From: Omnitrophica WOR_2 bacterium RIFCSPLOWO2_01_FULL_41_12
GTDB taxonomy: Bacteria; Omnitrophota; Gorgyraeia; Gygaellales; Profunditerraquicolaceae
Direction: 5' to 3'
NCBI GenBank assembly: GCA_001805765.1
Contig: MHGW01000042.1
Span: 1-30,676, forward strand
DNA: 30,676 nucleotides
The notes under the pieces were generated by a model, which saw nothing but the letters and a program-made list of their open reading frames with translations, ran no database searches and had not been told where the DNA came from. The stretch's first letter is position 1. The number at the start of each line of letters is the position of its first letter. The translations under genes and the position numbers were made by a program. Below, in pieces: positions 7,570-25,426 of the stretch.

Positions 7570-8127
7570 ATGAAAAAGATTTTGATTGGCTTAGGGATAG
7601 CATTAGTATTAATTATTGTATCTTTTATTTCGGTTTATAATAGTATAGTTGCTAAAAACGAAACGATTACCGCTAAATGGGCGCAGGTGGAAAATCAGTT
7701 GCAAAGGCGCAATGATTTAATTCCTAATTTAGTAAATAGCGTCAAGGGTTATGCCGGCCACGAAAGAACGGTTTTTCAAGAGGTGACTAATGCCCGCTCT
7801 CAATGGGCCAAGGCAAATACCGCGGATGAGAAGATAAAGGCTGCAGGCGCCACAGATACGGCATTAGCCAGGCTACTTTTAGTGGTAGAGAATTATCCAA
7901 TCTTAAAGGCAGACCAGACATTTTTAAAACTGATGGATGAATTATCCGGGACAGAAAACAGGATTGCCGTAGAGAGGATGCGTTATAACGAATCTGTCAG
8001 GGACTATAATGTTACGGTGCGTATGTTTCCCGGAAATTTGATCGCCGGAATGTTTGGCTATAAGCCAGCTACAGAATATTTTAAAGCAGAAGAAAAAGCT
8101 AAATCTGTACCGGAAGTGAAATTTTGA
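7570..8127 (+). CDS. lemA: LemA family protein
   Basis: N-terminal TM helix, QLQRRNDLIPNLV, ENYPILKAD, TENRIAVERMRYN and FPGNLIA. Confidence 0.95.
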   Translation: MKKILIGLGIALVLIIVSFISVYNSIVAKNETITAKWAQVENQLQRRNDLIPNLVNSVKGYAGHERTVFQEVTNARSQWAKANTADEKIKAAGATDTALARLLLVVENYPILKADQTFLKLMDELSGTENRIAVERMRYNESVRDYNVTVRMFPGNLIAGMFGYKPATEYFKAEEKAKSVPEVKF

Positions 8128-8131
8128 AAGA

Positions 8132-8160
8132 AGGGACAGTCCCCTGCGGGGACAGTCCCT
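8132..8160. repeat. Double-palindrome repeat, intergenic copy
   Basis: AGGGACAGTCCCCTGCGGGGACAGTCCCT is the exact reverse complement of 15541-15569. Confidence 0.9.
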
Positions 8161-8169
8161 TATAATAAA

Positions 8170-9366
8170 ATGAAATATATAGTCTTAGTTGGCGATGGAA
8201 TGGCGGATTATCCTATAAAAGAATTAGGCGGACGCACGCCCTTAGAGGTAGCTCGGACTCCCAATATGGATTTTATTGCTCAACACGGCAGGCTGGGCCG
8301 GATAAAAACCATTCCGGATAAGATGGCGCCTGCCTCGGATGTGGCCAATATTGCTATTTTAGGTTATGACCCGCAGAAATTCTATACCGGCAGAGGCCCT
8401 TTAGAGGCGGCAAATTTAGGCCTGGATTTAGAAGACGAAGATGTGGCTTTTCGCTGTAACTTGATTACTGCTTCAGGCGACAGCATTGTGGATTATAGCG
8501 CCGGCCATATCAGCTCTAAAGAAGCGGGCGAATTGATAAAATTTATTGACCAGAATTTAGGCACTAATCACATTAAGTTTTATCCCGGGGTAAGTTACCG
8601 GCACCTGATGTTAATAAAAAGAGGTGCTGAAGAACATTTGCAGGATTTAGTCTGTCAGCCGCCGCATGATATTACCGGCTTTAGTATCTCCAAGAATTTA
8701 CCCAAAGGAGAAAGCGCAGAAATTATTATCAGGTTAATGCAGGAGTCACGCAAGATTTTAGAGAGCCATGAAATAAATCAGGTCAGGATTGATTTAAAAG
8801 AGAATCCTGCGAATATGATCTGGCTCTGGGGCCCGGGTAAGAAACCCAGCCTGCCGAAATTTTCGCAAAAATACGGACTTTCGGGAAGCGTAATCTCCGC
8901 AGTAGACTTAATTAAGGGTTTAGGCAGGATATTAGATTTGCAAGTCATCAATGTCAAGGGCGCCACCGGCTATTATGATACGGATTATGCGGCTAAGGCA
9001 AAGGCGGCATTGAAATCCCTGGAGGAAAAAGATTTTGTCTTTTTACACGTAGAAGCGCCTGATGAAGCCGGCCATAACGGAGATCTACGGGAGAAAATTA
9101 CCGCGATTGAAAGGTTTGACCAATTAGTCGTCGGCACTATTTTAAATGCTTTAAAACGCAAAAAGAACTCGCGGATCTTAGTTTTACCCGACCATGCTAC
9201 GCCTGTTTCGCTAAAGACGCATGTGCCGGATCCGGTATTTTTTGGTATATACGGCAAAGGTATTATCGGCAGAGGATTTTTAAATTACAGCGAAAAAGAG
9301 GCAGAGAAATCCGACCTTTATTTTGAAAAAGGCCATGAACTGATGGATTATTTTATTAAATTATGA
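8170..9366 (+). CDS. apgM: Cofactor-independent phosphoglycerate mutase, ApgM type (family also proposed as homoserine kinase)
   Basis: GDGMAD, PASDVAN (phospho-Ser), SYRHL, HVEAPDEAGH and PDHATP. Confidence 0.85.
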   Translation: MKYIVLVGDGMADYPIKELGGRTPLEVARTPNMDFIAQHGRLGRIKTIPDKMAPASDVANIAILGYDPQKFYTGRGPLEAANLGLDLEDEDVAFRCNLITASGDSIVDYSAGHISSKEAGELIKFIDQNLGTNHIKFYPGVSYRHLMLIKRGAEEHLQDLVCQPPHDITGFSISKNLPKGESAEIIIRLMQESRKILESHEINQVRIDLKENPANMIWLWGPGKKPSLPKFSQKYGLSGSVISAVDLIKGLGRILDLQVINVKGATGYYDTDYAAKAKAALKSLEEKDFVFLHVEAPDEAGHNGDLREKITAIERFDQLVVGTILNALKRKKNSRILVLPDHATPVSLKTHVPDPVFFGIYGKGIIGRGFLNYSEKEAEKSDLYFEKGHELMDYFIKL

Positions 9367-10955
9367 ATTCCTTGTTTATTGTTATCATAGCCATAGTATT
9401 GTTTTTCTTGGCCTATAAATTCTATGCTAAAAAATTAGAAGGCCTTTGGCAGATTGACCCTAAAAGGCCGACTCCGGCTTTTTCCAAATATGACAGCGTA
9501 GATTATATCCCGGCAAAAAACTGGCTGGTTTTGTTTGGCCATCATTTTGCCTCTATTGCCGGAGCAGGCCCGATTATCGGGCCGGTGATTGCGGTGATGC
9601 TCTGGGGTTGGCTGCCGGCTTATATTTGGGTAATTTTCGGCACCATCTTTATCGGCGGAGTGCATGATTTTGGGGCATTGATTACTTCCGTGCGGGAAGG
9701 CGGTTCTTCAGTGGCGGATATTGCCCAGCATGTTATTTCCCGAAGGGCGAAGATTATTTTTTCCCTGTTTGTGTGGCTGGCCTTAATTTTAGTCATTGCT
9801 GTCTTTGCCTATCTTTGTGCGGATACCTTTGTCAAAGAACCCAAGATTGTTTTACCATCATTAGGATTAATACCGGTAGCCATGCTGGTAGGGTATCTTT
9901 TATATCATTTACGGGTAAATAGCGTATTGGCTACTATATTTGGCCTGGTATCTTTATTAGGCCTCATATTTTTAGGTAACCACATAGCTATTAATAATAA
10001 TTTAACCTTCTGGTTATTCGTTCTCTTTATCTATTGTTTTTTTGCTTCTGTTTTACCGGTAAACATACTTTTACAGCCGCGGGATTATCTTTCCAGTTTC
10101 TTATTATTTTTTGGCCTAGGCGCAGGATATCTAGGTTTATTATTATTTCCCCCCAAAATGAATATGCCTTTTTATCACAGCGGGATGTCTTCTGAAGGTT
10201 ATCTCTGGCCGGCATTATTTGTGACCGTGGCCTGCGGAGCAGTTTCCGGTTTTCACGCTTTAATTGCCAGCGGCACATCTTCAAAACAAATTGCCAATGA
10301 ACGCCAGGTAAGGAGAATCGGATACGGAGGAATGGTCGCCGAGGGCTTGGTAGCAGTGTTAGCCATAATTGCCACCGCATCTTTATTCAGGCCTGGCGAA
10401 GATTTTAGTAAAGCCTTAAAAACCCTGACCCCTATCGGAATATATGGTAAAGGATACGGGTTAATCACCAATAGAATTTTAGGTAATCACGGCGCTTTTA
10501 TCGCCATAACTATATTAAATGCATTTATCCTTACGACACTGGATACTGCGACAAGAATAGCCCGCTACTTAAGCGAAGAATTATTTAAAATCAAAAACCG
10601 TTATTTTTCAACCTTACTCATTGTCATCTTGGGTGCGGCTTTAGCCTTAAGCGGTAAATGGCAAAAAATCTGGCCGGCCTTTGGCGCATCCAATCAGTTA
10701 GTCGCTGCTCTGGCCTTATTTGTTTTAAGCTGTTGGCTTCTTTCCAAAGATAAAACGATAAAGTTTACTTTATTGCCGGCGTTCTTTATGCTGGTTACCG
10801 CTGTGGCAGCATTAGTATTACAGACCATCAAATATTTTGTCCATAAAGATATTGTGCTTTGTATGATTAGCGGCAGTTTAATTATATTATCGGTAATTAT
10901 GGTTTATGAAATTATCCGCTCATTGAAGGAGAAAAAAGCATGCATAAGGGTTTAA
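9363..10955 (+). CDS. cstA: Carbon starvation protein A family transporter
   Basis: GHHFASIAGAGPIIGP, GGVHDF, ACGAVSGFH, YGGMVAEG, TTLDTATR and WPAFGASNQL, with many TM helices. Confidence 0.93.
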   Translation: MNSLFIVIIAIVLFFLAYKFYAKKLEGLWQIDPKRPTPAFSKYDSVDYIPAKNWLVLFGHHFASIAGAGPIIGPVIAVMLWGWLPAYIWVIFGTIFIGGVHDFGALITSVREGGSSVADIAQHVISRRAKIIFSLFVWLALILVIAVFAYLCADTFVKEPKIVLPSLGLIPVAMLVGYLLYHLRVNSVLATIFGLVSLLGLIFLGNHIAINNNLTFWLFVLFIYCFFASVLPVNILLQPRDYLSSFLLFFGLGAGYLGLLLFPPKMNMPFYHSGMSSEGYLWPALFVTVACGAVSGFHALIASGTSSKQIANERQVRRIGYGGMVAEGLVAVLAIIATASLFRPGEDFSKALKTLTPIGIYGKGYGLITNRILGNHGAFIAITILNAFILTTLDTATRIARYLSEELFKIKNRYFSTLLIVILGAALALSGKWQKIWPAFGASNQLVAALALFVLSCWLLSKDKTIKFTLLPAFFMLVTAVAALVLQTIKYFVHKDIVLCMISGSLIILSVIMVYEIIRSLKEKKACIRV

Positions 10956-12160
10956 TTGTGCAGAAATTCGGCGGCTCTTCCGTAGCTAATCTCAGCCGCA
11001 TCCAGAATGTGGCCAGAAGAGTGGTCAATTACAGCAAAAAAGGCTATGACTTGGTAGTGGTGGTTTCTGCTTTGGGAGATACCACTGACGAACTCATTGA
11101 GTTAGCGCATAAAATTAACCCTGAGCCTGCGGAGAGGGAAATGGATATGCTTTTATCCACCGGCGAACAGATTTCCGTGGCCTTGTTAGCTATGGCTATC
11201 CATAAGTTAGGCTATGAGGCTATATCTTTTACCGGAGCGCAGGTAGGCATTATTACTGATACCAGCCATACCCGCGCCCGGATTTTAAAAATAAATGCGG
11301 ATAAAATAAAGGAAGAACTAAAAAACGGAAAGATCGTGATTGTCGCCGGTTTTCAGGGAGTTACTTTAAATCAAGATATTACTACTTTAGGCCGGGGCGG
11401 TTCGGATTTAACTGCCGTGGCCTTGGCCAAGGAATTGTGTGCCCGCGAATGCCAGATATATACTGATGTCGCGGGTATTTATACTACTGACCCGCACATA
11501 GAACGCCGGGCCAAGAAAATTTCCCGTATTACTTATGATGAGATGCTGGAGATGGCATCGTTGGGTGCCCAGGTAATGCAGGCGCGCTCCATAGAGGTAG
11601 CCAAAAAATTCAATGTGCCTATACATGTGCGCTCTTCATTTTCTAAAAAATCCGGAACCATGATTGTAAGGGAGGTTAAAAGAATGGAAGACGTAGTGGT
11701 AAGCGGGGTAACTCTAAATAAAAAAGAGGCCAAGATTACGGTTTGTAATGTCCCTGACCGTCCGGGCGTAGCCGCCAAGATATTCAAAGAATTATCCAGC
11801 GGCGGAATAAGTGTGGATATGATTGTGCAGAATGTCAGCCATACCCGGCAAACCGACATTTCTTTTACCGTAAATAAATCCGGCTTGAGCAAGGCATCCC
11901 GAATCACTAAAAAGATTGCCCGGCAAATACAGGCAGATGATGTCTTGGAGGATCAAGATATCGCCCGGGTTTCCATTGTGGGCGTAGGGATGAAGTCACA
12001 TCCGGGTGTCGCTGCTAAGATGTTTGAATCTCTGGCTAAAAATAAGATTAATATTGAGATGATTTCTACTTCCGATATCAGCATATCCTGTATTATCAAA
12101 AAGAAATCCGGAGAGACCGCAGTCAGGGCATTGCATGAAAAATTCGGGTTAGCAAAATAG
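10940..12160 (+). CDS. lysC: Aspartate kinase with two ACT domains
   Basis: VQKFGGSSV, VVVVSALG, TTLGRGGSDLTAV, IYTDV and two C-terminal ACT repeats. Confidence 0.96.
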   Translation: MHKGLIVQKFGGSSVANLSRIQNVARRVVNYSKKGYDLVVVVSALGDTTDELIELAHKINPEPAEREMDMLLSTGEQISVALLAMAIHKLGYEAISFTGAQVGIITDTSHTRARILKINADKIKEELKNGKIVIVAGFQGVTLNQDITTLGRGGSDLTAVALAKELCARECQIYTDVAGIYTTDPHIERRAKKISRITYDEMLEMASLGAQVMQARSIEVAKKFNVPIHVRSSFSKKSGTMIVREVKRMEDVVVSGVTLNKKEAKITVCNVPDRPGVAAKIFKELSSGGISVDMIVQNVSHTRQTDISFTVNKSGLSKASRITKKIARQIQADDVLEDQDIARVSIVGVGMKSHPGVAAKMFESLAKNKINIEMISTSDISISCIIKKKSGETAVRALHEKFGLAK

Positions 12161-12171
12161 CGAGGTTGAAG

Positions 12172-13740
12172 ATGTCTAAAGTAAAATTATACGATACCAC
12201 TTTAAGGGACGGAGCGCAGGGAGAAGGTATTTCTTATTCGGTAATGGATAAGGTTAGGATTGCCCAGGAATTAGATAAATTAGGCATCCATTATATTGAG
12301 GGCGGCTGGCCGGGTTCTAACCCCAAAGATATGGAATTCTATTTAAAAATGGCAAAGGTACGCTTAAAGAATAGCGTATTGGTGGCTTTTGGTTCCACAC
12401 GTAAAGCCCATACCCACGCAAATCAAGACCAGAACTTAAAAGCTATTTTGAAATCACAGGCAAAGATTGTGGCTATCTTTGGTAAGACCTGGGATTTACA
12501 TATTAAAGACGTCTTAAAGACTACACTCGATGAGAACCTGCAGATGATTAAAGATAGTTTGAGTTTTCTGGCCTCAAAAGGCCTGATCGTATTTTATGAT
12601 GCCGAGCATTTCTTTGATGCCTATAAGGCTAATAAAGAATATAGCCTAAAGTGTCTGTTGACTGCTCAGGAAGCAGGCGCAAAGGCCATTGTTCTCTGCG
12701 ATACAAACGGCGGGACACTTACCTCTGAGATTTCCCGGGTTATTCAGGAAATCCGGCCTAAAATAAATGTTGGCTTAGGTATTCATTGTCATAATGATGC
12801 TGGTTTAGCAGTAGCAAATTCCCTGGTTGCCGTTGAGGCGGGTTGCGATATGGTCCAGGGTACAATTAATGGTTATGGCGAACGCTGCGGCAACGCGGAT
12901 TTAATCCCGCTTATTGCCAACCTGAAATTAAAATTGGGTATTGACTGTATCAGCGACGATAAATTAAAAGAATTGACTAGGGCTTCGCATTTTGTCAGCG
13001 AGATAAGCAATATGCGGCAAAAAGATGATCAACCTTATGCCGGCGTATCCAGTTTTGCCCATAAAGGCGGTGTGCATATTAATGCCGTAATGAAGAATCC
13101 CAGAACCTATGAGCATATTGAACCGTCACTGGTAGGGAATCGGCGCAGGATCTTGGTTTCGGAATTAGCGGGTAAGACCGGGATTTTAATTCGCGCCAAA
13201 GAATTAGAATTAGATTTAAGCAAAGAAGACCCCCAGACCAAAAGGATCCTTAAGCTCATCCAGAATTTAGAGCACCAGGGTTATCATTTTGAGGCGGCAG
13301 AGGCTTCCTTTGAATTATTAATGAAAAAAGCCCTGAAGAAGTATAAGAAATTTTTTGAATTAGAGGGTTTTCGGGTAGTGGTAGAGAAGCGTTCTGATAA
13401 AAAGATTGCGTCGGAGGCGATTATCAAATTAAAGGTAAAAGGCGTAAAAGAACACACTGCTGCTGAAGGCGACGGCCCGGTAAATGCCTTGGATAATGCC
13501 CTGCGTAAGGCATTAAAAGATTTTTATCCCACCCTATCCAAAATGCATCTTTCTGATTTTAAGGTGCGCGTATTGGAGGAGAAGGCAGGCACAGCTAGCC
13601 GGGTGCGTGTGCTTATCCAGTCTCAGGATGAAACAGATACCTGGAGCACTATCGGTGTTTCCGGAAATATTATTGAAGCCAGTTGGCAGGCATTAGTGGA
13701 TAGTGTGGAATATAAGTTATTGAAGGATAGAGTAGAATAA
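12172..13740 (+). CDS. cimA: Citramalate synthase (LeuA/CimA family)
   Basis: DTTLRDGAQGEG, IEGGWPGSNPKD, YDAEHFFD, HCHND, GERCGN, HKGGVH and a regulatory C-domain. SD GAGG precedes ATG12172. Confidence 0.88.
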   Translation: MSKVKLYDTTLRDGAQGEGISYSVMDKVRIAQELDKLGIHYIEGGWPGSNPKDMEFYLKMAKVRLKNSVLVAFGSTRKAHTHANQDQNLKAILKSQAKIVAIFGKTWDLHIKDVLKTTLDENLQMIKDSLSFLASKGLIVFYDAEHFFDAYKANKEYSLKCLLTAQEAGAKAIVLCDTNGGTLTSEISRVIQEIRPKINVGLGIHCHNDAGLAVANSLVAVEAGCDMVQGTINGYGERCGNADLIPLIANLKLKLGIDCISDDKLKELTRASHFVSEISNMRQKDDQPYAGVSSFAHKGGVHINAVMKNPRTYEHIEPSLVGNRRRILVSELAGKTGILIRAKELELDLSKEDPQTKRILKLIQNLEHQGYHFEAAEASFELLMKKALKKYKKFFELEGFRVVVEKRSDKKIASEAIIKLKVKGVKEHTAAEGDGPVNALDNALRKALKDFYPTLSKMHLSDFKVRVLEEKAGTASRVRVLIQSQDETDTWSTIGVSGNIIEASWQALVDSVEYKLLKDRVE

Positions 13741-16445
13741 TGCATGTTGAGCTTCCCAGTCAATATAACCCCAAAGAAACCGAAAATAAGTGGTATAAGT
13801 TTTGGCAAGAGCATAATCTATTTTCCGCAAAACCTAATCCTACCAAAAAACCTTTCTGCATAGTTATTCCTCCGCCCAATGTTACAGGTATCCTGCATAT
13901 GGGCCATGCCCTTAATAATACTATCCAAGATATCCTCATTAGATACCATCGGATGAAAGGCGAAGAATCTTTGTGGATGCCGGGAACTGACCATGCCGGT
14001 ATTGCCACGCAGAATGTAGTGGAGAAGGCGATTGCCAAGGAAGGATTAAAACGCCAGGATTTAGGTAGAGAGAAATTCCTGGAACGCGTCTGGCAGTGGC
14101 AGAAGGAATACGGCTCTACGATTATCCATCAACTGCAGAAACTGGGCGCATCCTGCGATTGGCAGAGGACGCGCTTTACTATGGACGAAGATTATTCCCG
14201 GTCAGTGATAGAGGCTTTTGTACGGTTATATGAAAAGGGACTGATTTACCAAGGTAATTATATTATCAACTGGTGCCCTCGGTGTCAGACTGCGCTTTCT
14301 GATGAAGAGGCGCCGCATAAAGAAATCCAAGGGAATCTTTATTATTTAAGATATCCTTTAAAGCAGGGACAGTCCCTTTCAGGGACAGTCCCTGCTTATA
14401 TTGTAGTGGCTACTACTCGTCCAGAAACTATGCTCGGCGATACCGCAGTAGCAGTAAATCCTAAAGATAAACGCTATAAGAAATATATTGGCCAAACTTT
14501 AATTTTACCTTTGATAAACCGGGAAATAAAAGTAATTGCGGACGCTATGGTAGATATGAAGTTCGGCACAGGCGCAGTCAAGGTAACGCCAGCGCACGAT
14601 CCCAATGATTATACATTGGGCAAGAAACATCATCTTGAATTTGTAAATATAATGTATGCTGATGCACGCTTAAACGAAAATGCCGGAGAATACAAGGATA
14701 TGGATAGGTTTGCAGCCAGAGATATTATCCTGAAGGACCTAAAAGAAAAAGGGCTATTGGAGAAAATAGAGCCGCATCAGTTGTCCGCAGGCCATTGTTA
14801 TCGTTGCCATACCATCATTGAGCCATATTTATCCAAGCAATGGTTTGTAAAAATGTCACCCCTTTCCAAACCCGCATTGGAAGTGGTGAGAAAAGGAAAA
14901 ATTAAATTCTATCCTAAACGTTGGACTAAGGTTTATCTTAACTGGATGGAGAATATCCAGGATTGGTGCATCTCGCGCCAAATCTGGTGGGGACACCGCC
15001 TGCCTGTTTATTATTGTAAAAACTGCCCAAATCTTCAACAAGCTGGTATTATTGTTTCCAGAATAAAGCCAGATAAATGTCCGAGCTGTGGCTCAACGGA
15101 TATTTATCAGGATGAAGATGTCTTGGATACCTGGTTTTCCTCGTGGCTGTGGCCGTTCGCCACTTTTAAAAATGGAGAAGATTTAAAATATTTCTATCCT
15201 ACCTCAAGTTTGGTCACTGCTCCGGAAATAATTTTTTTCTGGGTGGCGCGCATGATTATGGCGGGATTAGAATTTATGCAGGATATACCCTTTAAAGATG
15301 TTTATATCCATGGTACTGTACGCGATATTGAAGGTAAAAAAATGTCCAAATCCCTGGGGAATATTATTGACCCCTTAGAGATTATCCATGAATATGGCGC
15401 AGATGCCCTGCGTTTTAGCTTGATATCTATTACCGCCCAAGGCCAGGATGTGTTTTTATCCAAAGAAAGGTTCCAACAAGGCAGAAACTTCGCCAATAAA
15501 ATCTGGAATGCCTCCCGCTTTATTTTAATGAATCTTACCCAGGGACTGTCCCCGCAGGGGACTGTCCCTGCTATAGATTTATGCGTGTTTTTTAAGAAAG
15601 AGGACCTGGATATTGTCAACCGCTGGATATTAAGTAGGTTTTATACTGTACTGAAAGAGACTAATAAAAATTTAGAGGCCTATAAATTTAATGAGGCGGC
15701 AAATACCTTATACGGCTTTTTCTGGCATGAATTCTGCGATTGGTATTTAGAGATGATTAAATCCGATATTAAAAACCAGCGCAATCAAGTAGTGATGTAT
15801 AAAGTCTTAGAAAAATTCTTAAGGCTGATACACCCTTTTATGCCTTATATTAGCGAAGAAATCTGGCAGAGAATATATAATCAGGGACAGTCCCCTGGGG
15901 GAGGAGTCCCTGGAAATAGTATTATGATTCAGCCCTGGCCGCATGTGCAGGAACAGATGATCGATAAAAAAAAGGAAGATAAGTTGAATCTAATATTTGA
16001 GATAATTGCCAGCATCCGCAATATACGCCAGGAATTAGAAATACCACTCCAGAAGGAGATAGGGGTAATTATCGCCTCCCCAAATCAAGAAAACAGAAAA
16101 CTTATTGAAGAAATGTCCGGCCAGATAAAAAAAATAGCCAAATTAAGCAATCTCAATATTAATGCAAAATACAGCCACGTTAAATCCAGCGTTAGTGGCG
16201 TGATAAAGGATGTGCATGTAACCTGCCTGCTTTCTGGAATAATTGATTTGGAAAGAGAGAAAGCAAAGCTGGATGCACGTATCCGAGAATTAGCAGCACA
16301 GATAAGCGCTAAGAAAAAAACTTTAAGTAATAAAGCATTCTTAAAGAAAGCCCCGGAAGAAATAGTAGAAAAAGAGAGTGATGGACTTAAGGAATTAAAT
16401 GGTATTTTAAAGCGGATTAAGGAAATTAAGAATGAATTACAGTAA
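13740..16445 (+). CDS. valS: Valine--tRNA ligase, with three in-frame repeat insertions
   Basis: PPPNVTG, HMGH (HIGH), TTRPET, FGTGAVKVTPAHD, WCISRQIWWGH, KMSKS and a C-terminal coiled coil. Confidence 0.98.
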   Translation: MHVELPSQYNPKETENKWYKFWQEHNLFSAKPNPTKKPFCIVIPPPNVTGILHMGHALNNTIQDILIRYHRMKGEESLWMPGTDHAGIATQNVVEKAIAKEGLKRQDLGREKFLERVWQWQKEYGSTIIHQLQKLGASCDWQRTRFTMDEDYSRSVIEAFVRLYEKGLIYQGNYIINWCPRCQTALSDEEAPHKEIQGNLYYLRYPLKQGQSLSGTVPAYIVVATTRPETMLGDTAVAVNPKDKRYKKYIGQTLILPLINREIKVIADAMVDMKFGTGAVKVTPAHDPNDYTLGKKHHLEFVNIMYADARLNENAGEYKDMDRFAARDIILKDLKEKGLLEKIEPHQLSAGHCYRCHTIIEPYLSKQWFVKMSPLSKPALEVVRKGKIKFYPKRWTKVYLNWMENIQDWCISRQIWWGHRLPVYYCKNCPNLQQAGIIVSRIKPDKCPSCGSTDIYQDEDVLDTWFSSWLWPFATFKNGEDLKYFYPTSSLVTAPEIIFFWVARMIMAGLEFMQDIPFKDVYIHGTVRDIEGKKMSKSLGNIIDPLEIIHEYGADALRFSLISITAQGQDVFLSKERFQQGRNFANKIWNASRFILMNLTQGLSPQGTVPAIDLCVFFKKEDLDIVNRWILSRFYTVLKETNKNLEAYKFNEAANTLYGFFWHEFCDWYLEMIKSDIKNQRNQVVMYKVLEKFLRLIHPFMPYISEEIWQRIYNQGQSPGGGVPGNSIMIQPWPHVQEQMIDKKKEDKLNLIFEIIASIRNIRQELEIPLQKEIGVIIASPNQENRKLIEEMSGQIKKIAKLSNLNINAKYSHVKSSVSGVIKDVHVTCLLSGIIDLEREKAKLDARIRELAAQISAKKKTLSNKAFLKKAPEEIVEKESDGLKELNGILKRIKEIKNELQ
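14364..14393. repeat. Double-palindrome repeat, in-frame copy 1 in valS (QGQSLSGTVP)
   Basis: CAGGGACAGTCCCTTTCAGGGACAGTCCCT. With flanks (14361-14397, AAGC/GCTT) it forms a near-perfect long hairpin. Confidence 0.9.
15540..15569. repeat. Double-palindrome repeat, in-frame copy 2 in valS (QGLSPQGTVP)
   Basis: CAGGGACTGTCCCCGCAGGGGACTGTCCCT. Positions 15541-15569 are the exact reverse complement of 8132-8160. Confidence 0.9.
15882..15911. repeat. Double-palindrome repeat, degenerate in-frame copy 3 in valS (QGQSPGGGVP)
   Basis: CAGGGACAGTCCCCTGGGGGAGGAGTCCCT has 4 mismatches over 29 nt to the intergenic copy, all in the second half. Confidence 0.82.
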
Positions 16446-17292
16446 AGTTATTCATCTAGTCAGGAGTAGTTTAAAGGAAGATATCGGAAAAAGAGATATT
16501 ACTACAGGACTGTTTATCCCAAAAGATAAGATGGCCAAGGCGGTAATATTAGCCAAGGAGGATTGCGTAGTTTGTGGTATGGAGATTGCTAAAATTGTAT
16601 TCAAGGCTACAGATAATAAAATTAAATTTAAATCTTCTGCTGCAGACGGCCAGCATATAAAAAAAGGAAAGGTTATGGCCCGGATACAAGGTAAGGCCAG
16701 GTCCATTTTAATTGCGGAACGAACCGCCTTAAATTTTTTAAGCCATCTTTGCGGCATCGCTACTTTAACCAGAAGATTCGTTCAGGCCATTAAGCCCTAC
16801 CGAGTAAAGATTATGGATACGCGTAAGACCATTCCCAATCTTAGGGCTTTACAGAAATATGCGGTCAGAATAGGAGGAGGGATTAACCATCGGTTTAAAT
16901 TGGATGAGATGGTATTGATTAAGGACAATCACTTAAAGGTTATAGGTGATAGGTTATGGGTTATAGGTTTTAAAAAAATAAAAAATAAAATCCCGACTAA
17001 AATCAAAAAAGAAGTAGAAGTAAAAACACTTCAAGAATTTAAGCAGGCTTTAAAAATCAGAGCAGATATAATTATGTTGGATAATATGAAGTTAAGCGAT
17101 ATAAAAAAAGCAGTTATGATAAGAAACTGCCTATCACCTAACACCTATCACCCAACACCTAAGCTAGAGGCTTCAGGTGGTATTACTCTGAAAAGTATCA
17201 AAAAAGTAGCAGCCACAGGCGTAGATATGATTTCCGTGGGAGTATTAACTCACTCCGCAAAATCGATTGATATTAGTTTAGAGGTTTTGTAG
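16432..17292 (+). CDS. nadC: Nicotinate-nucleotide pyrophosphorylase (carboxylating)
   Basis: [45 protein letters not shown] and ISVGVLTHS. Confidence 0.96.
16940..16967. repeat. Heptamer tandem array in frame in nadC
   Basis: TTATAGG TGATAGG TTATGGG TTATAGG, translated as [10 protein letters not shown]. Confidence 0.8.
17130..17157. repeat. Heptamer tandem array in frame in nadC, inverted relative to 16940-16967
   Basis: CCTATCA CCTAACA CCTATCA CCCAACA, translated within [18 protein letters not shown] is the reverse complement of TGATAGG. Confidence 0.8.
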
Positions 17293-20601: not shown

Positions 20602-21821
20602 TGCGCAAGGTCTTAACCTTTATTATGGCTGGAGGAAAAGGCGAGCGGCTCTGGCCTTTAACCAAAGACCGCACCAAGCCCGCAGTGCCTTTCGGCGGGA
20701 TATATAGAATCATTGATTTTACCTTAAGCAATTGCGTTAACTCTGGCCTGCGCAAGATTTATGTGCTCACCCAATATAAATCCGCATCCCTGCAAAGGCA
20801 TATCCGCTTAGGCTGGAATATTTTATCCTCAGAATTAGGAGAATATATTGAATTATTGCCGGCGCAGCAGCGGATAGGGGAGTCCTGGTATTTGGGCACT
20901 GCCGATGCTATTTATCAAAATTTTTATACTGTGGAAATAGATAAGCCCGATGAAGTCTTAATTCTGGCTGGAGACCATATCTATAAAATGAATTATTATA
21001 CGATGATTGATTTTCATCGGGAAGTGGACGCGGATTTAACTGTGGGCGTGGTGGAAGTAGAAAAAGAACGCTCCAGCCATCTGGGGGTAGTAGAGGTAGA
21101 TAATCTAGGCCGGGTCAGAGGTTTTCAGGAAAAGCCGGCTAAGCCTAAGACCATACCTCATCAACCGGATAAGGTTTATGCCTCCATGGGGATTTATGTT
21201 TTTAAGCATCCGGTGCTGGAAGCCGAATTACAAGAGGATGCCCAGAAAAAAAATTCCTCCCATGATTTCGGAAAAGATATTATTCCGCAGATGCTGAAAA
21301 AGAATTTAAAGGTAGCCGCTTTTAATTTTATTGACGAGAACAAAAAAGAGGCAAAGTATTGGCGCGATATCGGAACTATAGATGCCTATTATGAAGCGAA
21401 TATGGACTTGGTGGCAGTTGACCCTGTCTTTAACCTTTACGATAAAGAATGGCCGATCCGCACTTATCAGGAACAGTTTCCTGCAGGCAAAACAGTTTTT
21501 TCCGGTGAAGAGGTTGCCGGAAGGGTGGGGTTGGTGCTGGATTCTTTGATGTGCGGAGGCTGTATTGTCAGCGGCGGCAGGGTGCAACGCTCCATACTTT
21601 CTCCCAATGTCAGGATTAATAGCTATTCTCAGATTTATGAATCTATACTTTTGGAAGGCGTTAATGTCGGCAGATATGCTAAAATAAAACGGGCAATCGT
21701 TGATAAAGACGTGGTTATTCCTCAAGGCATGGTCATCGGCTATGATTTAGAAGAAGATAAAAAAAAGTTTGCCGTAAGCGACACCGGTATTGTCGTGGTA
21801 GCCAAAGGCACAGTGATATGA
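20598..21821 (+). CDS. glgC: Glucose-1-phosphate adenylyltransferase
   Basis: [53 protein letters not shown] and YWRDIGT. Confidence 0.97.
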
Positions 21822-24226: not shown

Positions 24227-25426
24227 ATGCCAATTGGAATCATCATAGAAAAATGCACCGGCTGCACCTTATGCATTAAGGTCTGCCCTTTTGACGCCAT
24301 ACGGATTATGGATAAAAAAGCGGTTTTGGACTTAGACAAATGCAATCTTTGCGGAGCCTGTGTTCCTGCCTGTAAATTTAAGGCCATTTTGCTTGAAAAA
24401 GAAGAGGCTAAAACTAAAGTTAATGTTAGTGATTATAAGGGAGTTTGGGTTTTTGCCGAGCAGAAAAAAGGCAAGGTTCAACCCGTGGCCTATGAATTAA
24501 TCGCTAAGGCTAGAGACTTGGCCGCTACGCTTGGTACAGAGGTGGCGGCAGTTTTATTAGGAGACCGCTTAGAAGAAGAAATTCAGGAATTAATCTGGCG
24601 CGGCGCAGATAAAGTTTATGTGGTGGAAAAAAGAGAACTGGCTAATTTTCAGGATGAGCCATACACCCATATCTTAGTGGAATTGATTAAAAAATATAAA
24701 CCCGAAATTGTTTTATGCGGAGCAACTTCTATTGGCCGTTCACTGATCTCGCGGGTAGCAGTGCAAATACGCGCTGGCTTAACTGCGGATTGCACGGGGT
24801 TAGATATTGACCCGCAAAAAAAGATTCTCCTGCAGACCCGCCCTGCTTTTGGCGGAAATATTATGGCCACCATTATCTCTCCGGATTATCGGCCGCAAAT
24901 GGCTACGGTCAGGCACAAGGTTTTTGCTGAATCTGTTTCGGATATGAAACGCAAAGGAAAAATTATCCGCGAGAATTTTGACAACGCATTACTTGCTAGC
25001 CACACCCAACTTCTGGATATTATAGATGAGATTGAGGCCACGGTTAATATGGCAGAAGCAGATATCATTGTTTCCGGAGGAAGAGGCATGCAGGCGCCGG
25101 AAAATTTTAAACTCATTAAAGATTTAGCCCAGGTTTTAGGCGCGGCAGTAGGCTCATCCCGCGCTGCAGTAGATAGCGGCTGGATGCCTTATTCGCATCA
25201 AGTAGGACAAACCGGCCGCACAGTCAGCCCAAAAATCTATATTGCATGCGGTATCTCCGGACAGATTCAACATTTAGTAGGAATGCAGTCGTCAAAAATT
25301 ATCATCGCCATCAACAAAGACCCTGATGCGCCCATCTTTAAAGTAGCAAATTATGGCGTAGTCGGCGACCTTTTTCAAATCCTGCCTTTACTCACCAGAA
25401 AATTCCAGGAAGTCCTAAAGAAGTAA
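24227..25426 (+). CDS. etfA: Electron transfer flavoprotein alpha subunit with N-terminal 2x[4Fe-4S] ferredoxin domain
   Basis: [12 protein letters not shown] and [39 protein letters not shown] and AINKD. Confidence 0.94.

Follow-up and report, generated by a model that had tools for sequence, protein, structure and literature searches.

Stem-loop repetitive extragenic palindromes (REPs) of 20–40 bp, tagged GTAG or CGTC, lie mostly just downstream of genes, with some wholly intragenic (Di Nocera, De Gregorio, Rocco 2013, PMC3733652). In that survey the intragenic REPs encode extra residues, twice per gene in uvrA and uvrB, and tRNA synthetase genes are among the hosts; the PVC bacterium Opitutus terrae had the most intragenic copies, and the authors suggest that such inserts occupy flexible linkers or loops. 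Figure 9 of the same paper presents terminal inverted repeats (TIRs) of TIRtrons and TIRYT tyrosine transposases, with a GGGGWSAS motif. Here we describe a hairpin repeat of 27–31 nt, probably of this REP/TIR type, with three in-frame copies in the valine-tRNA ligase gene valS of an uncultivated Omnitrophota bacterium. The window analysed is the whole of contig C42 (30,676 nt) of the metagenome-assembled genome (MAG) Omnitrophica WOR_2 RIFCSPLOWO2_01_FULL_41_12, hereafter G000, which comprises 704 kb in 52 contigs, is 64% complete and has a G+C content of 41%. Other palindromic repeats known from bacteria are of different make. Rickettsia palindromic elements measure about 100–150 bp, and no transposase is known to be linked to them. 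The cyanobacterial SDR repeats, of other sequence and from another taxon, are reportedly about 21–27 nt long with a palindromic core and found inside genes; to our knowledge, they have no link to a Y1 transposase. REPINs are typically doublets of two inverted REPs, about 100 nt in length; they are confined to single species, pass on vertically and lie almost exclusively outside genes.

The valS gene (13740..16445, forward strand) encodes 901 aa, as given by its open reading frame (ORF) and translation. Its database homologues are annotated as valine-tRNA ligase of Candidatus Omnitrophota, and its product matches the T. thermophilus enzyme ValRS (1GAX) at E = 1e-221. A sequence-only reading of the window had placed three copies of a 30-nt block in this gene, starting at 14364, 15540 and 15882 and encoding QGQSLSGTVP, QGLSPQGTVP and QGQSPGGGVP. 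These coordinates and translations (14364–14393, 15540–15569 and 15882–15911) were reproduced, and translation bore out that all three copies share the valS frame despite their differing orientation. The 30-nt block itself had to be revised: the actual unit is a 27-nt core, or 29–31 nt with its A/T and CA/TG foot. In a half-site search of the window, site 1 (14364..14394, forward strand) reads CA-GGGACAGTCCCTTTCAGGGACAGTCCC-TG in the 'A' orientation; its palindrome runs on to 14361–14397 (AAGCA...TGCTT), and its loop-proximal pair has changed from C:G to T:A, with both arms altered. Site 2 (15540..15570, forward strand), CA-GGGACTGTCCCCGCAGGGGACTGTCCC-TG, has the 'T' orientation and a perfect 27/27 core, and site 3 (15882..15912, forward strand) is again of the 'A' orientation, with a decayed second arm (GGGAGGAGTCCC) and differences at 4 of 27 positions. 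Sites 1 and 3 belong to the 'A' type (GGGACAGTCCC, W = A) and site 2 to the 'T' type (GGGACTGTCCC, W = T), which is its reverse complement. The predicted tryptic peptides spanning the valS inserts include QGQSLSGTVPAYIVVATTR.

A further copy, AA-GGGACAGTCCCCTGCGGGGACAGTCCC-TT (8131..8161, forward strand), is intergenic, 5 nt past the stop of the LemA gene (7570–8127) and 10 nt before the gene at 8170–9366; gene names here derive from Pfam matches on strain contigs. The core of this copy (8133–8159), read on the opposite strand, is identical to that of site 2. Overall, the window contains 7 half-sites GGGACWGTCCC with at most one mismatch, where 0.2 would be expected, and valS holds three elements against 0.13 expected from about 34 per 704 kb (P(≥3) = 3e-4). 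The presence of three in-frame hairpin copies in valS is confirmed, with a caveat on site 2 that is taken up below.

The element can be written as GGGACWGTCCC(C)-N3-5-(G)GGGACWGTCCC, the arms (A)GGGACWGTCCCC and GGGGACWGTCCC(T) enclosing a 3-nt loop of GAA/TTC, GCA/TGC or GTA/TAC. Single-stranded copies form a stem of 13–16 bp with one central W:W mismatch (A:A or T:T) and the 3-nt loop. Folded as DNA, site 1 reaches -17.5 kcal/mol (z = -8.7), site 2 -14.6 kcal/mol (z = -5.9) and the intergenic copy -12.9 kcal/mol (z = -6.1); the decayed site 3 folds weakly (z = -1.5). The mismatch is a kept feature, since 153 of 163 copies have an identical base at both W positions. The pair that adjoins the core on its outer side (-1/+1) covaries, being A:T in Omnitrophota and G:C in high-GC phyla, and because the next pair outward is complementary in about half of the Omnitrophota copies (TA, AT and CG pairs in G000), the palindrome often extends into the flanks. 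The half-sites, each a dyad in its own right, form a direct repeat with a 16-nt offset. Copy flanks are inverted rather than direct (CA..TG, GA..TC and AA..TT, with TA..TA ambiguous). About 5 of the 34 G000 copies carry a GTAG-GGAC foot and several more TAG-GGAC; the valS copies have CAG-GGAC, and those of high-GC phyla mostly G at -1. An Rfam scan of window positions 7900–16500 gave no match at E ≤ 1.

Several other element classes were considered. A CRISPR-like array was ruled out by the lack of regular spacing. A miniature inverted-repeat transposable element, with TIRs, direct target-site duplication and an origin in a DDE-type insertion sequence (IS), was likewise ruled out: the flanks are inverted, internal sequence is lacking and an IS related to the element was not observed. 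The idea of a type IIS restriction site (GGGAC being of the BsmFI type) was dropped, as nothing supported it.

Exact half-sites number 54 in G000 and 0 in shuffles, and the 12-mers of the element are the most frequent 12-mers of the genome. With about 34 elements in G000, the earlier proposal of a compact, dispersed palindromic repeat family is well founded. Some 12 copies are intergenic, 5–54 nt past a stop codon, about 6 lie within the last 15 codons of genes, among them MurJ and PlsX, and annotated N-termini account for about 3. The roughly 10 copies internal to long ORFs are distributed over valS (three), fumarate hydratase, a GltD-like oxidoreductase, RecG, a periplasmic binding protein and two large unknown proteins. 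These copy numbers are lower bounds, because the repeat evidently breaks or scaffolds assemblies: an element abuts an N run in recG (C19:1718–1744), and others sit at contig ends (C6:11–37 and C18:61–71).

What recurs is a DNA element and no motif of the peptide. Either strand may carry the copies, which are read in each of the three frames (as GQSPxGTVP, GTVPxGDSP and RDSPxRGQS), and their host genes are mutually unrelated. The 27-nt core amounts to 9 codons, and the expectation that either strand would be free of stops held, the main variants with common loops having none in all six frames. The check for frame bias proposed along with the sequence-only reading revealed one preferred frame, frame 2, in 18 of 26 internal copies outside ValRS (P = 2e-4). 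In that frame the common intergenic foot TAGGGAC would yield a TAG stop, so that in-gene copies avoid T there and carry C, G or A; a T-oriented GTA loop in frame 2 would likewise yield TAG. This bias, together with the single frame at all ValRS sites, is what a selected protein motif G[Q/L]SPxGTVP (a linker, modification or binding site) would predict if it had arisen by convergence, with the DNA repeat as a by-product. However, the DNA is identical (27/27) where synonymous codons could vary, both strands are used and the decayed site 3 is tolerated. The intergenic and out-of-frame copies rule the protein motif out, and we regard it as extremely improbable.

The three insert sites are length-variable loops among 30 family- or order-level relatives and 120 database homologues. 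In an AlphaFold2 model of ValRS (mean predicted local distance difference test score, pLDDT, of 66, with the catalytic core poorly modelled), site 1 falls in a coil at 208–219 between strands 197–207 and 220–225, site 2 in a coil between helices 575–598 and 614–620, and site 3 in a coil after helix 702–714, with pLDDT below 50 at 211–216, 603–607 and 716–723, respectively. In the alignment to 1GAX, all three inserts correspond to gaps in the solved protein (8 aa at site 1 and 10 aa at site 3). The placement of the copies in variable ValRS loops between conserved blocks, as suggested from the sequence, is thus supported by orthologue lengths and by predicted coil at all three inserts, the latter from a model whose catalytic core is poor. 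The clean 10-aa indels anticipated at these sites were not recovered when orthologues were aligned, the modal orthologue loops being 6, 6 and 9 residues shorter than those of the window at sites 1, 2 and 3. In fumarase, the stretch encoded by the element is no longer than the loop of relatives (net ~0).

Occupation of these loops recurs across the phylum. Among 141 Omnitrophota ValRS proteins, well-kept copies (pattern G[QL]S[PLQ]xG[TA][VA]P) were found 16, 13, 9 and 4 times at loops near residues 210, 478, 600 and 718, respectively, 42 in total; the window ValRS has no copy at the loop near 478. Element-bearing loops occur in about 40 lineages, all in frame 2 (G[Q/L]SPxGTVP), with the two orientations about equally common. 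The minimum number of state changes at the four loops was 12, 12, 9 and 4 (37 in total), a rough estimate as it was counted on a quick tree of this one protein with the loops masked. The element occupies the site 2 loop in nine other lineages. One further lineage, L224, carries three perfect 27/27 copies in valS, at sites 1, 4 and 2; another, G011, has decayed copies at the same three sites as the window and in the same orientation; and the sister lineages G010 and P0019 carry opposite orientations at the same residue. Long-loop variants and numerous decayed copies were likewise found in these ValRS loops, as were other repeats, including AAATCC-type heptamers and QVTGHR-type and RTTNYELRT-type peptides. 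The ValRS loops are therefore shown to be hot spots, four tolerant loops being occupied again and again across Omnitrophota, which is a new finding. The earlier view that three copies in one gene are special stands in so far as valS is a real hot spot, be it through targeting or through tolerance.

The perfect copies in the same loop and the flipped sisters would need repeated insertion, in-place renewal or lateral allele transfer. One tentative and rather unlikely extension would make the ValRS loops true landing pads, at which a Y1/HUH nuclease or gene conversion renews a hairpin copy, flips it (by a kind of hairpin transfer) or replaces it in place, and from which occupied alleles pass from one Omnitrophota lineage to another on recombination tracts of 60–100 nt. 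If true, it would explain the perfect copies in genes of only ~70% identity, the flipped sisters, the variable net lengths and the AAGCA...TGCTT extension of site 1, and would amount to concerted site-specific evolution of translated selfish hairpins within an essential gene.

Strain-level comparison bears on the individual copies. Six contigs from several samples are 99.6–99.99% identical to the window over 11–22 kb. The intergenic copy and sites 1 and 3 are unchanged in all six, sites 1 and 3 being present in Logan contigs as well, and the site 2 element is absent from all six. Protein comparison, DNA alignment and a difference map delimit a polymorphic patch of 66 nt around site 2 (15516..15581, forward strand). 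The element-free allele of this patch encodes NLEPCETKVDLC; aligned with the window, it diverges in 37 columns and falls 18 nt short, and the patch flanks carry synonymous changes (CGC/AGG, AAT CTT/AAC TTA and TTA/TTG); outside the patch, strain contig L049 differs from the window at three positions in 22.7 kb. Neither junction of site 2 had a match in JGI metagenome contigs, and a run search with an 81-nt stretch around the site returned no indexed run with more than one of four sampled words; since contig collections lose rare variants, the absence of the filled allele there is no proof of an artefact. In Logan contigs, runs X1 and X3 span site 2 with the element-free allele, and contigs of X2 and X8 break at the patch borders. 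The pattern points to an allele from a donor ~20–25% divergent, or to an assembly bubble, rather than to a fresh insertion.

A further possibility is that assembly produced the copies, or at any rate site 2, as an artefact, through a repeat-induced or cross-population chimera in the bin. The strain data that isolate site 2 to this assembly fit such an origin, as does the position of elements at contig ends and beside an N gap. On the other hand, six assemblies made independently from several samples carry sites 1 and 3 and the intergenic copy in identical form, which answers the concern over assembly for these copies and leaves it standing for site 2. The site 2 patch moreover preserves the frame and the conserved residues, the occurrence of the element in that loop in nine other lineages indicates that the allele comes from a real valS gene, and the X2 and X8 contigs break exactly where a two-allele bubble would make them break. 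We consider an artefact possible, but on balance unlikely.

Other short divergent tracts were observed in the same population. Strain contig L048 (20540–20610) has a 42-nt in-frame insert, adding SEDSGLASVSQSHK, in a ferredoxin/electron transfer flavoprotein (ETF) gene (window 24295–24311, ORF 24227–25426). The insert carries a different hairpin repeat (GGTTTGGCTTCCGTTAGCCAAAGCC), present also at G000 C19:8864, and has five synonymous changes immediately upstream, a signature as at valS site 2. At window positions 20723–20792 and 21152–21258, tracts of 11–14 clustered substitutions without indels were seen in the near-identical contigs L051 and L048. Such tracts suggest that short patches are often exchanged with divergent relatives by recombination, or that the assemblies contain bubbles.

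These patches also bear on a second account, in which occupied loops undergo gene conversion and homologous or short-patch recombination, and the element spreads chiefly in this way, with renewal and flipping in place; new transposition would be rare, and the hot spots would be old landing pads that are overwritten. The two site 2 alleles, differing over a 66-nt tract with synonymous flank changes in otherwise near-identical DNA, agree with this account, and so do the L048 hairpin indel at window position 24311, the short divergent tracts, the shared sites and orientation of the decayed G011 copies, the sister lineages flipped at an identical position and the occupation of the same loops by other repeat families. 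Against it, recombination works poorly on an identity of only 27 nt, a donor allele did not come to light, an assembly bubble could account for the allele at site 2, and the number of events comes from a quick tree of one protein. As the main mode of spread, recombination seems to us possible, but on balance unlikely.

The REP/TIR reading draws on the distribution of the element and on its association with transposase genes. The exact 27-mer is found on at least 118 contigs of the species-representative genome collection, with G+C contents of 39 to 74%, from phyla and groups that include Omnitrophota, Aminicenantes/Acidobacteriota, Gaiellaceae and other Actinomycetota, Gammaproteobacteria, Planctomycetota and Myxococcaceae. 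Within Omnitrophota, the element was detected in 49 of 401 genomes, G000 being the densest; 88% of the sampled genomes lack it, and most of the genomes that bear it hold 1–4 copies only. In high-GC MAGs of Gammaproteobacteria and Actinomycetes (L059, L075, L087, L099, L110 and L119), the 27-mer is clustered as 2–3 copies ~45–200 nt apart; these clusters resemble REP clusters of the bacterial interspersed mosaic element (BIME) type, and the Omnitrophota copies are single.

Genes similar to the Y1 transposase-like genes of G000 were present in 3 of 80 fetched element-bearing loci, where ~0.2 would be expected by chance on a rough estimate. In two of these, from Aminicenantes (L104) and Planctomycetota (L071), the gene is flanked on both sides by the exact element in inverted orientation. 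Both proteins match only NCBIfam NF047646, REP-associated tyrosine transposase (RAYT), at 69–71 bits and E ~1e-19, and their flanking copies contain the arm GGGGACAG, which fits GGGGWSAS, the TIRYT consensus as quoted in PMC3733652. Because inverted copies flank a RAYT-like gene in these two loci, the element was assigned to the REP/TIR repeats of Y1 transposases. G000 itself has four Y1_Tnp matches, three of which also match NF047646; its RAYT-like genes include those at C18:6163–6651 and C35:278–868, and the Y1 gene on its contig C35 is flanked by inverted GGGACGTTCCC-type hairpins. We further inspected 44 Y1 loci from 35 Omnitrophota relatives, 30 of them from 30 relatives and 14 from the five most element-rich genomes. 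Their flanks are hairpin inverted repeats that have a common (T/C)AGGGAC foot and then diverge, as in loci L175–L199 and L210–L223 (GGTTCTGA..., ACCCTTTC..., GTTTCT... and AGCGACC...). This arrangement suggests that many repeat families have one conserved cleavage or recognition foot in common.

Taken together, we find it likely that the repeat is a REP/TIR-type hairpin of HUH/Y1 (RAYT/TIRYT) transposases, which belong to the IS200/IS605 superfamily, copied by the transposase and surviving in frame in floppy loops. The notion of a new kind of repeat 'built' for coding gives way to this assignment, about half of the copies being intergenic or at the 3' ends of genes. Several points weigh against it. 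The RAYT-like matches of L104 and L071 fall under the curated cut-off of NF047646 (80 bits), the exact element flanks none of the four Y1 genes of G000 (with the MAG at 64% completeness), and none of the 44 relatives' Y1 loci has it within 1.5 kb. The net changes in ValRS (+6, +6 and +9 aa) and in fumarase (~0) misfit a simple insertion of 27–31 nt, and perfect copies occupy the same loop in ValRS proteins ~70% identical, with opposite orientations in sisters. Finally, no clean pair of empty and filled sites was found: the flanks of the sole polymorphism, at site 2, have diverged, and nothing beyond the present assembly supports it.

Instead of being a selfish element, the repeat could be kept by selection as a DNA or RNA signal that functions throughout the genome, for instance as a site bound by a protein, as a signal for uptake or recombination, or as a hairpin that stabilises mRNA or causes pausing. 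Such a role would fit the exact conservation across phyla, the perfect copies in genes with diverged flanks, the conserved central mismatch and covarying foot, and the operator-like arrangement of half-sites as dyads in direct repeat 16 nt apart. Many copies also lie 5–50 nt past stop codons, a location for which an effect of REPs on mRNA has been proposed (PMC3733652). Yet a distribution of 1–4 copies in most carriers, with 88% of the sampled Omnitrophota lacking the element, is too patchy for a housekeeping signal. The copies decay freely, as at site 3 and at all three sites of G011, their host genes are unrelated, and the element flanks transposase genes in two phyla. We consider a selected signal improbable.

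Under the REP/TIR reading, a Y1 transposase would recognise the single-stranded hairpin and copy it to new locations. In small, gene-dense Omnitrophota genomes, many landings would then fall within genes, and a landing would persist under purifying selection if it were in frame, stop-free and in a floppy surface loop. The frame giving G-[Q/L]-S-P-x-G-T-V-P, a Gly/Ser/Pro/Thr linker, would survive most often, and loop alleles may be exchanged by short-tract recombination. Since the frames are intact in the essential single-copy valS, the copies are presumably translated as loop extensions without harm to the enzyme.

Variants of the element and further repeats were noted in G000 and its relatives. 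'Long-loop' variants, in which two half-sites are separated by 21–26 nt of unique sequence, occur at G000 C13:23114–23163, C21:9287–9336, C3:18148–18192, C7:2350–2392 and C27:1186–1230. In the GltD-like gene, two half-sites bracket an apparent native linker, the middle part aligning with the linkers of orthologues; it may be that each half-site is acquired on its own, or that sequence is captured by the loop. Seven intergenic copies (C19:5021, C19:7114, C21:9287, C39:38864, C39:42502, C39:5064 and C13:2082) sit in a conserved composite of ~95 nt, AGCATTGCAGTA-[hairpin]-TACTAAGCGAGATAAG..TTGATTGCGAGATAAGCCAAAA, one of which comes after an apparent tRNA 3' end. The composite may be a compound repeat or a small RNA. 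A second abundant G000 family consists of AAAATCC/AAATCCC heptamers and gives the next commonest 12-mers of the genome. It lies in frame at the valS site 1 loop of the relatives G001 (L005) and G024 (EEIQNPKSKIPNKSQIPNPNFQN), and inverted arrays of GGTTATAGG-like heptamers were seen at window positions 16937–17160 in nadC (quinolinate phosphoribosyltransferase, ORF 16432–17292).

The recurrent 'motif' in many predicted proteins of Omnitrophota and other uncultivated bacteria (GQSPxGTVP, GLSPxGTVP, GTVP or GDSP) stems from a DNA repeat and should not be annotated as a domain. An essential aminoacyl-tRNA synthetase can tolerate several selfish hairpins simultaneously. For metagenomics there is a warning as well, in that such repeats break contigs and can create or hide short allelic patches in conserved genes.

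Compared with described systems, the element resembles the Rickettsia palindromic elements (named in PMC3733652 and PMC10969869) as an in-frame selfish palindrome in protein genes, essential ones included; the Rickettsia elements are translated and tolerated at protein surfaces, as is presumed here, and the present element differs in its length of 27–31 nt, its sequence and its taxon. With REPINs and RAYTs (Bertels and Rainey 2011, PMC3116915) it has in common over-represented short palindromes, hairpins and a single-copy Y1 transposase flanked by repeats. However, the present unit is a single hairpin of two 12-nt arms rather than a doublet; it is often intragenic and common to many phyla, and clusters with ~45-nt spacing occur only in some high-GC genomes. 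The likeness to TIRYT TIRs, as far as these are presented in Figure 9 of PMC3733652, lies in the arm, which was compared with the quoted GGGGWSAS consensus, in the inverted flanking of RAYT-like genes, and in the moderate abundance as singles, dimers and clusters in several phyla. Unlike those TIRs as shown there, the element does not flank the Omnitrophota Y1 genes examined, which are flanked by other hairpins with only the (T/C)AGGGAC foot in common.

The GTAG REPs of PMC3733652 are likewise short imperfect palindromes with a stem-loop, and some present copies carry their GTAG/TAG foot (gcaGTAGGGAC...). Inverted repeats flank the RAYT-like gene in L104 and L071, as in the layout of REPtrons and TIRtrons; in the Y1 loci of the Omnitrophota relatives, only the foot is common. 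The GGGACWGTCCCC-N3-GGGGACWGTCCC family does not appear in the text-format supplements of PMC3733652, which lack GGGACAG/GGGACTG and GTVP/GQSP, and a literature text search with 11- and 13-mers of the element returned only eukaryotic, viral and other unrelated matches, with no paper on palindromic repeat insertions in Omnitrophota. The present repeat is thus a member of the known class of intragenic REP/TIR repeats, of a family not found in the searched literature. REPs are mainly extragenic, whereas about half of the present copies touch coding sequence, with one frame dominant; and in contrast to the intragenic REPs described, the same four ValRS loops are occupied in dozens of lineages. This hot-spot series across ~40 Omnitrophota lineages is the most useful novel feature of the system: as it covers four loops, either orientation and every stage of decay, it offers a natural series on site choice and survival, decay rate and in-place renewal of REP/TIR repeats.

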